Continuation of a report generated by a model with database tools. The report is on a DNA stretch of 64,000 bases from Patescibacteria group bacterium (GTDB lineage: Bacteria; Patescibacteriota; Patescibacteriia; JACRDY01): assembly GCA_041653535.1 (NCBI GenBank), contig JBAZFH010000002.1, positions 173,011 through 237,010 of the forward strand, in the 5' to 3' direction; not shown here.

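Follow-up and report, generated by a model that had tools for sequence, protein, structure and literature searches.

Gene content and packing of the array

The ORF listing for 18970-60350 contained 37 ORFs, all on the plus strand, and no credible minus-strand gene. Nine of the 36 junctions were overlaps, and the gaps measured 0-10 nt in 14 cases, 11-30 nt in nine and more than 30 nt in four (median 8 nt, maximum 90 nt). The G+C content of the window was 40%, and GC skew was positive all along. Because the same-strand run (10353-63749) was longer than the array, taking in TrxR, GDH, RNase HII and LeuRS genes upstream and ComEC downstream, co-directionality by itself is insufficient to delimit the unit. 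In a scan for sigma-70 promoter and intrinsic-terminator consensus patterns, which may not suit this lineage, every terminator-like hairpin in the array lay inside an ORF and none in an intergenic gap, in agreement with the first-pass annotation, which had seen no intrinsic terminator there. The first strong hairpin past the array (61507-61535, 13-bp stem) followed a small fn3 gene, upstream of which lay a separate promoter-like site (60379-60407).

When all ORFs were scanned with Pfam and NCBIfam, almost all of the domain calls in the first-pass annotation were reproduced. The double GT4 (30442) was recovered, together with three single GT4s rather than four. Two of the three proposed GT-C-like proteins, 35901 and 54459 (26% identical to each other), were retained, and the third, 57578, was sub-threshold (22.5 vs 26 bits) and without BLAST similarity to either. 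Read from its listed TTG start, 57578 shares 100 nt (57578-57677) with the GT-C gene before it; the real start is probably further downstream and the protein shorter than 653 aa. The glycan set had been described as complete, which was not borne out: among ORFs of at least 100 aa across the 64 kb, we detected no priming phosphoglycosyltransferase, Wzy or Wzz domain.

The glycan genes are broken up by the following block, in which Apt (19762) and MTAP (21137) exceeded their NCBIfam equivalog cut-offs and the DUF6580 protein had no PDB match:

19762-22445, plus strand: Apt, UbiE-like methyltransferase, MTAP and DUF6580 membrane protein, between the nucleotidyltransferase and the first GT2

This block possibly provides cofactor or by-product support, by salvaging adenine from MTA and 5'-deoxyadenosine and by taking up vitamins; at the 5' end, MTAP and Apt could recycle adenine from the MTA and 5'-deoxyadenosine made by 12 SAM-using enzymes. 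Since no MTAP/Apt linkage was seen in the other compared loci, we kept recycling outside the proposed mechanism.

Family placement of the radical SAM proteins

None of the five array radical SAM proteins attained any curated NCBIfam cut-off. The scores of 45130 were 262 bits for HpnJ (cut-off 577.6), 164 for ApyD, 155 for BchE and 122 for AprD4, those of 24428 were 169 (HpnJ) and 119 (BchE), and those of 34453 were 124 (BchE), 120 (HpnJ) and 118 (ApyD). For 32769 and 49243 the best models were tungsten-cofactor maturase, AhbD and NirJ, all far under cut-off. Among solved structures, AprD4 was nearest to 45130 by sequence (E 7e-29), and the AlphaFold model of 45130 (pLDDT 94.6) matched it (Foldseek E 2e-26, TM 0.74/0.80) ahead of TsrM, MgmA, CysS, OxsB and TokK. 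Both 34453 and 24428 were nearest to MgmA (9ccb), a weak match, and 32769 to BtrN (E 4e-18), then BlsE. The nearest structure to 49243 by sequence was GDGT-MAS (E 9e-11), its fold neighbours being a mixed and uninformative set.

The protein 24428 had been called a B12-binding class B radical SAM enzyme; its B12-binding match was sub-threshold, and instead of CX3CX2C it carries the cluster motif CWWGRCTFC (CX4CX2C), kept as CWWG[RK]CxFC in four orthologues (L006, L012, L013 and L014). In 32769, C262, C280, C325 and C328 align onto the four C-terminal cysteines of BtrN, which we take to be its ligands, and in the 49243 family the invariant C-terminal cysteines number exactly four and are likewise spaced C-x17-C...C-x2-C. 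On this pattern both proteins, labelled "radical SAM-SPASM" in the first-pass annotation, look like Twitch enzymes with a single auxiliary cluster and not like full SPASM enzymes.

No array radical SAM protein was placed among peptide maturases or RNA methylases, a placement that the first-pass annotation had named as contrary to its proposal of a surface glycan. The nearest characterised relatives were sugar-directed enzymes, from antibiotic and hopanoid pathways, non-methylases included. HpnJ and BchE perform no methyl transfer (PMC9204698), AprD4 does not bind cobalamin (PMC12931638), and a stringent similarity network places Fom3 and MoeK5 together with HpnJ (PMC9204698). Given these non-methylase relatives and this grouping, methylation is neither favoured nor excluded, and the proposed "poly-C-methylated" glycan is no better supported than products of other radical chemistries. 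The identities of 24-29% among the radical SAM proteins of the window indicate that the paralogues are old and that the array was assembled from distinct families, not by recent duplication.

Neighbourhood and likely substrate of the 45130 family

Homologues of 45130 numbered more than 3000 at E<=1e-10, and one match was a 36-kb Logan contig carrying the same gene order as the window. A pattern scan over the GTDB species representatives (one genome each), which do not include the window genome itself, yielded 80 loci of the 45130 type, all MAG-derived. They occurred in Patescibacteria (Saccharibacteria, Shapirobacteria and Moranbacteria), in other bacteria (Elusimicrobiota/Endomicrobia, Verrucomicrobiota, Lentisphaerae, Thermodesulfobacteriota, Nitrospinota, Omnitrophota, Chloroflexota, Bacteroidales and WOR-3) and in archaea (Aenigmatarchaeota, Iainarchaeum, Woesearchaeota, Bathyarchaeia and Methanoperedens). 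Archaeal MAGs, DPANN and other, with 45130-type enzymes included L079, L044, L051, L053 and L063; L079 (Woesearchaeota) also encodes SPASM1-like (32769), SPASM2-like (49243), methyltransferase-like and polyprenol-P GT2-like proteins, and L063 (Methanoperedens) has five class-B-like genes.

We labelled locus ORFs by BLASTP against the window proteins and considered the 35 loci with a 45130 orthologue (at least 42% identity) and at least 5 kb of flank on each side. At least one glycan gene was found in 32 of the 35; an SDR homologue lay within 5 kb of the orthologue in 28/35, a GT4 was present in 17/35 and a further class-B radical SAM gene in 15/35. A cassette of nucleotidyltransferase, 45130-type enzyme, double GT4, SDR2, SDR1 and polyprenol-P GT2 recurred in L017, L018, L021, L050 and L080, with SDR2 60-65% identical to 29328 and SDR1 56-61% identical to 28275. 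Chloroflexota loci had the order GT2, SDR2, 45130-type.

In the relative P0024 (746 aa, 57% identical), a sugar-1-P nucleotidyltransferase domain (NTP_transferase) is naturally fused to a 45130-type radical SAM enzyme. In its groundwater metagenome contig (L002, 1-7244; also L003 and L004), a TPP decarboxylase and an Fe-ADH precede it, and another class B radical SAM enzyme follows, then a GT4. Fosfomycin biosynthesis employs Fom2, FomC, the Fom1 cytidylyltransferase domain and Fom3, and the Fom3 substrate is cytidylylated. The order of the P0024 locus resembles this series, whereas its context is glycan. In addition, SDR1 (28275) is a member of the CDP-tyvelose 2-epimerase family, matching TaTyvE (9RL0) at E 5e-104, and TaTyvE interconverts CDP-glucose and CDP-mannose (PMC13098431); the TaTyvE literature searched makes no mention of its gene context or physiological role. 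Taken together, the fusion, the Fom-like order, the cassette linkage and the SDR1 family suggest that the 45130 substrate is most likely nucleotide-activated, and possibly CDP-linked.

Related loci in other genomes

The locus is not unique; it is of a recurrent, modular type, with the same blocks elsewhere. L089 (Logan) has two GT-Cs, three SDRs and two GT4s, followed by the same triad as 32769-35871 (SPASM1-type protein, 205-aa methyltransferase, 472-aa class B enzyme). Next come a 500-aa class B enzyme with a methyltransferase on each side, a GT-C, a GT4 and a further class B enzyme. The Patescibacteria MAG GCA_042570845.1 has two such loci on different contigs: L005, with a GT-C, three class B enzymes, methyltransferases, a SPASM protein and GT4s, and L091, with Wzx, GT2s, a class B enzyme, an SDR and a 773-aa double GT4, then a SPASM1-type protein, two more SPASM proteins, another class B enzyme and a GT-C. 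Its total of at least nine radical SAM genes (at least five class-B-like, at least four SPASM-type) exceeds that of the window. An Omnitrophota contig (L090) follows the same logic with a TylC3-like C-methyltransferase, a cupin and an aminotransferase in addition, and L013 has five class-B-like enzymes within 21 kb. Overall, the fetched loci contained 143 class-B-like ORFs in 34 groups (at least 40% identity), and 13 loci had three or more.

The 32769 group had about 95 homologues at >=40% identity. The 49243 orthologue group was small (six of 1.84 billion cluster representatives at least 43% identical) within a wider family of 240 at E<=1e-30. Its distant relatives P0295, P0296 and P0308 are giant proteins (1431-1927 aa). 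The radical SAM query matches them at five to seven separate places, which makes them tandem multi-radical-SAM fusions.

Flanking genes

The leucyl-tRNA synthetase at 15010-18474 (1154 aa) has two extra in-frame enzyme domains inserted around its editing domain: an IS200/RAYT-like Y1 transposase domain (aa ~263-368) that keeps the HUH motif (EHVHLLV) and Y-x2-NP (ISYLQNNP), and an alpha/beta serine hydrolase domain (aa ~538-723) that keeps GHSLG. The fn3 gene (60498-61487) lies between the best promoter-like site of the region and the only strong terminator there. It encodes a small membrane-anchored protein with a Gly-Tyr repeat (GYVGYGYGYNAWGYGYGYG), a G7/Ser/Thr/Pro linker and 23.7% Ser+Thr; it is a candidate glycosylation target. 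ComEC (61579-63749) is apparently split into DUF4131 plus Competence (61579-62904) and a metallo-beta-lactamase ORF with a GTG start (62817-63749), which overlap by 88 nt in different frames, reflecting either a frameshift or a genuine split.

At 8361-9702, CoaB-like (DFP) and CoaC-like (flavoprotein) ORFs are separate, overlap by 101 nt and stand in the opposite order to that of the usual fusion; G+C is highest in the window at 8-10 kb (0.47-0.52). The gene-poor 1.5 kb that follows (9703-11206) had no Rfam family at a credible score and contains a 123-aa membrane ORF and three small ORFs:

9734-9991: small Cys-rich zinc-ribbon-like ORF
9993-10250: small Cys-rich zinc-ribbon-like ORF
10759-10983: small Cys-rich zinc-ribbon-like ORF

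Interpretation

Domain content, packing, the conservation of blocks and the occurrence of the radical SAM families beside sugar genes are observed directly. Substrates, reaction types, the acceptor and whether there is a single product or several are inferred. On the last point, the serious rival, plausible though not what we expect, is that the array consists of several independent modules, a reading compatible with the same chemistry. It is unlikely that the radical SAM chemistry is directed at a lipid, and quite improbable that the product is a secreted carbohydrate antibiotic. A peptide maturation or defence system is hardly credible in view of the 45130 neighbourhood statistics, the lack of room for a precursor gene in the array and the PADLOC result.

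There is nothing unusual in glycan loci, Wzx, GT-C, SDR tailoring or O/N-methyltransferases as such. Very many members of the radical SAM superfamily are uncharacterised, and the functional readings offered here are predictions from sequence. Our literature search returned nothing on radical SAM families in envelope-glycan assembly or on the 45130 cassette, and the reviews of this radical SAM enzyme class that it covered leave glycans unmentioned; the only precedent found was an unstudied radical SAM gene in a C. jejuni capsule cluster. What appears to be undescribed is that several uncharacterised radical SAM families, class-B and Twitch, are embedded in envelope-glycan assembly, and that in many uncultivated phyla a conserved sugar-nucleotide cassette surrounds the 45130 family.
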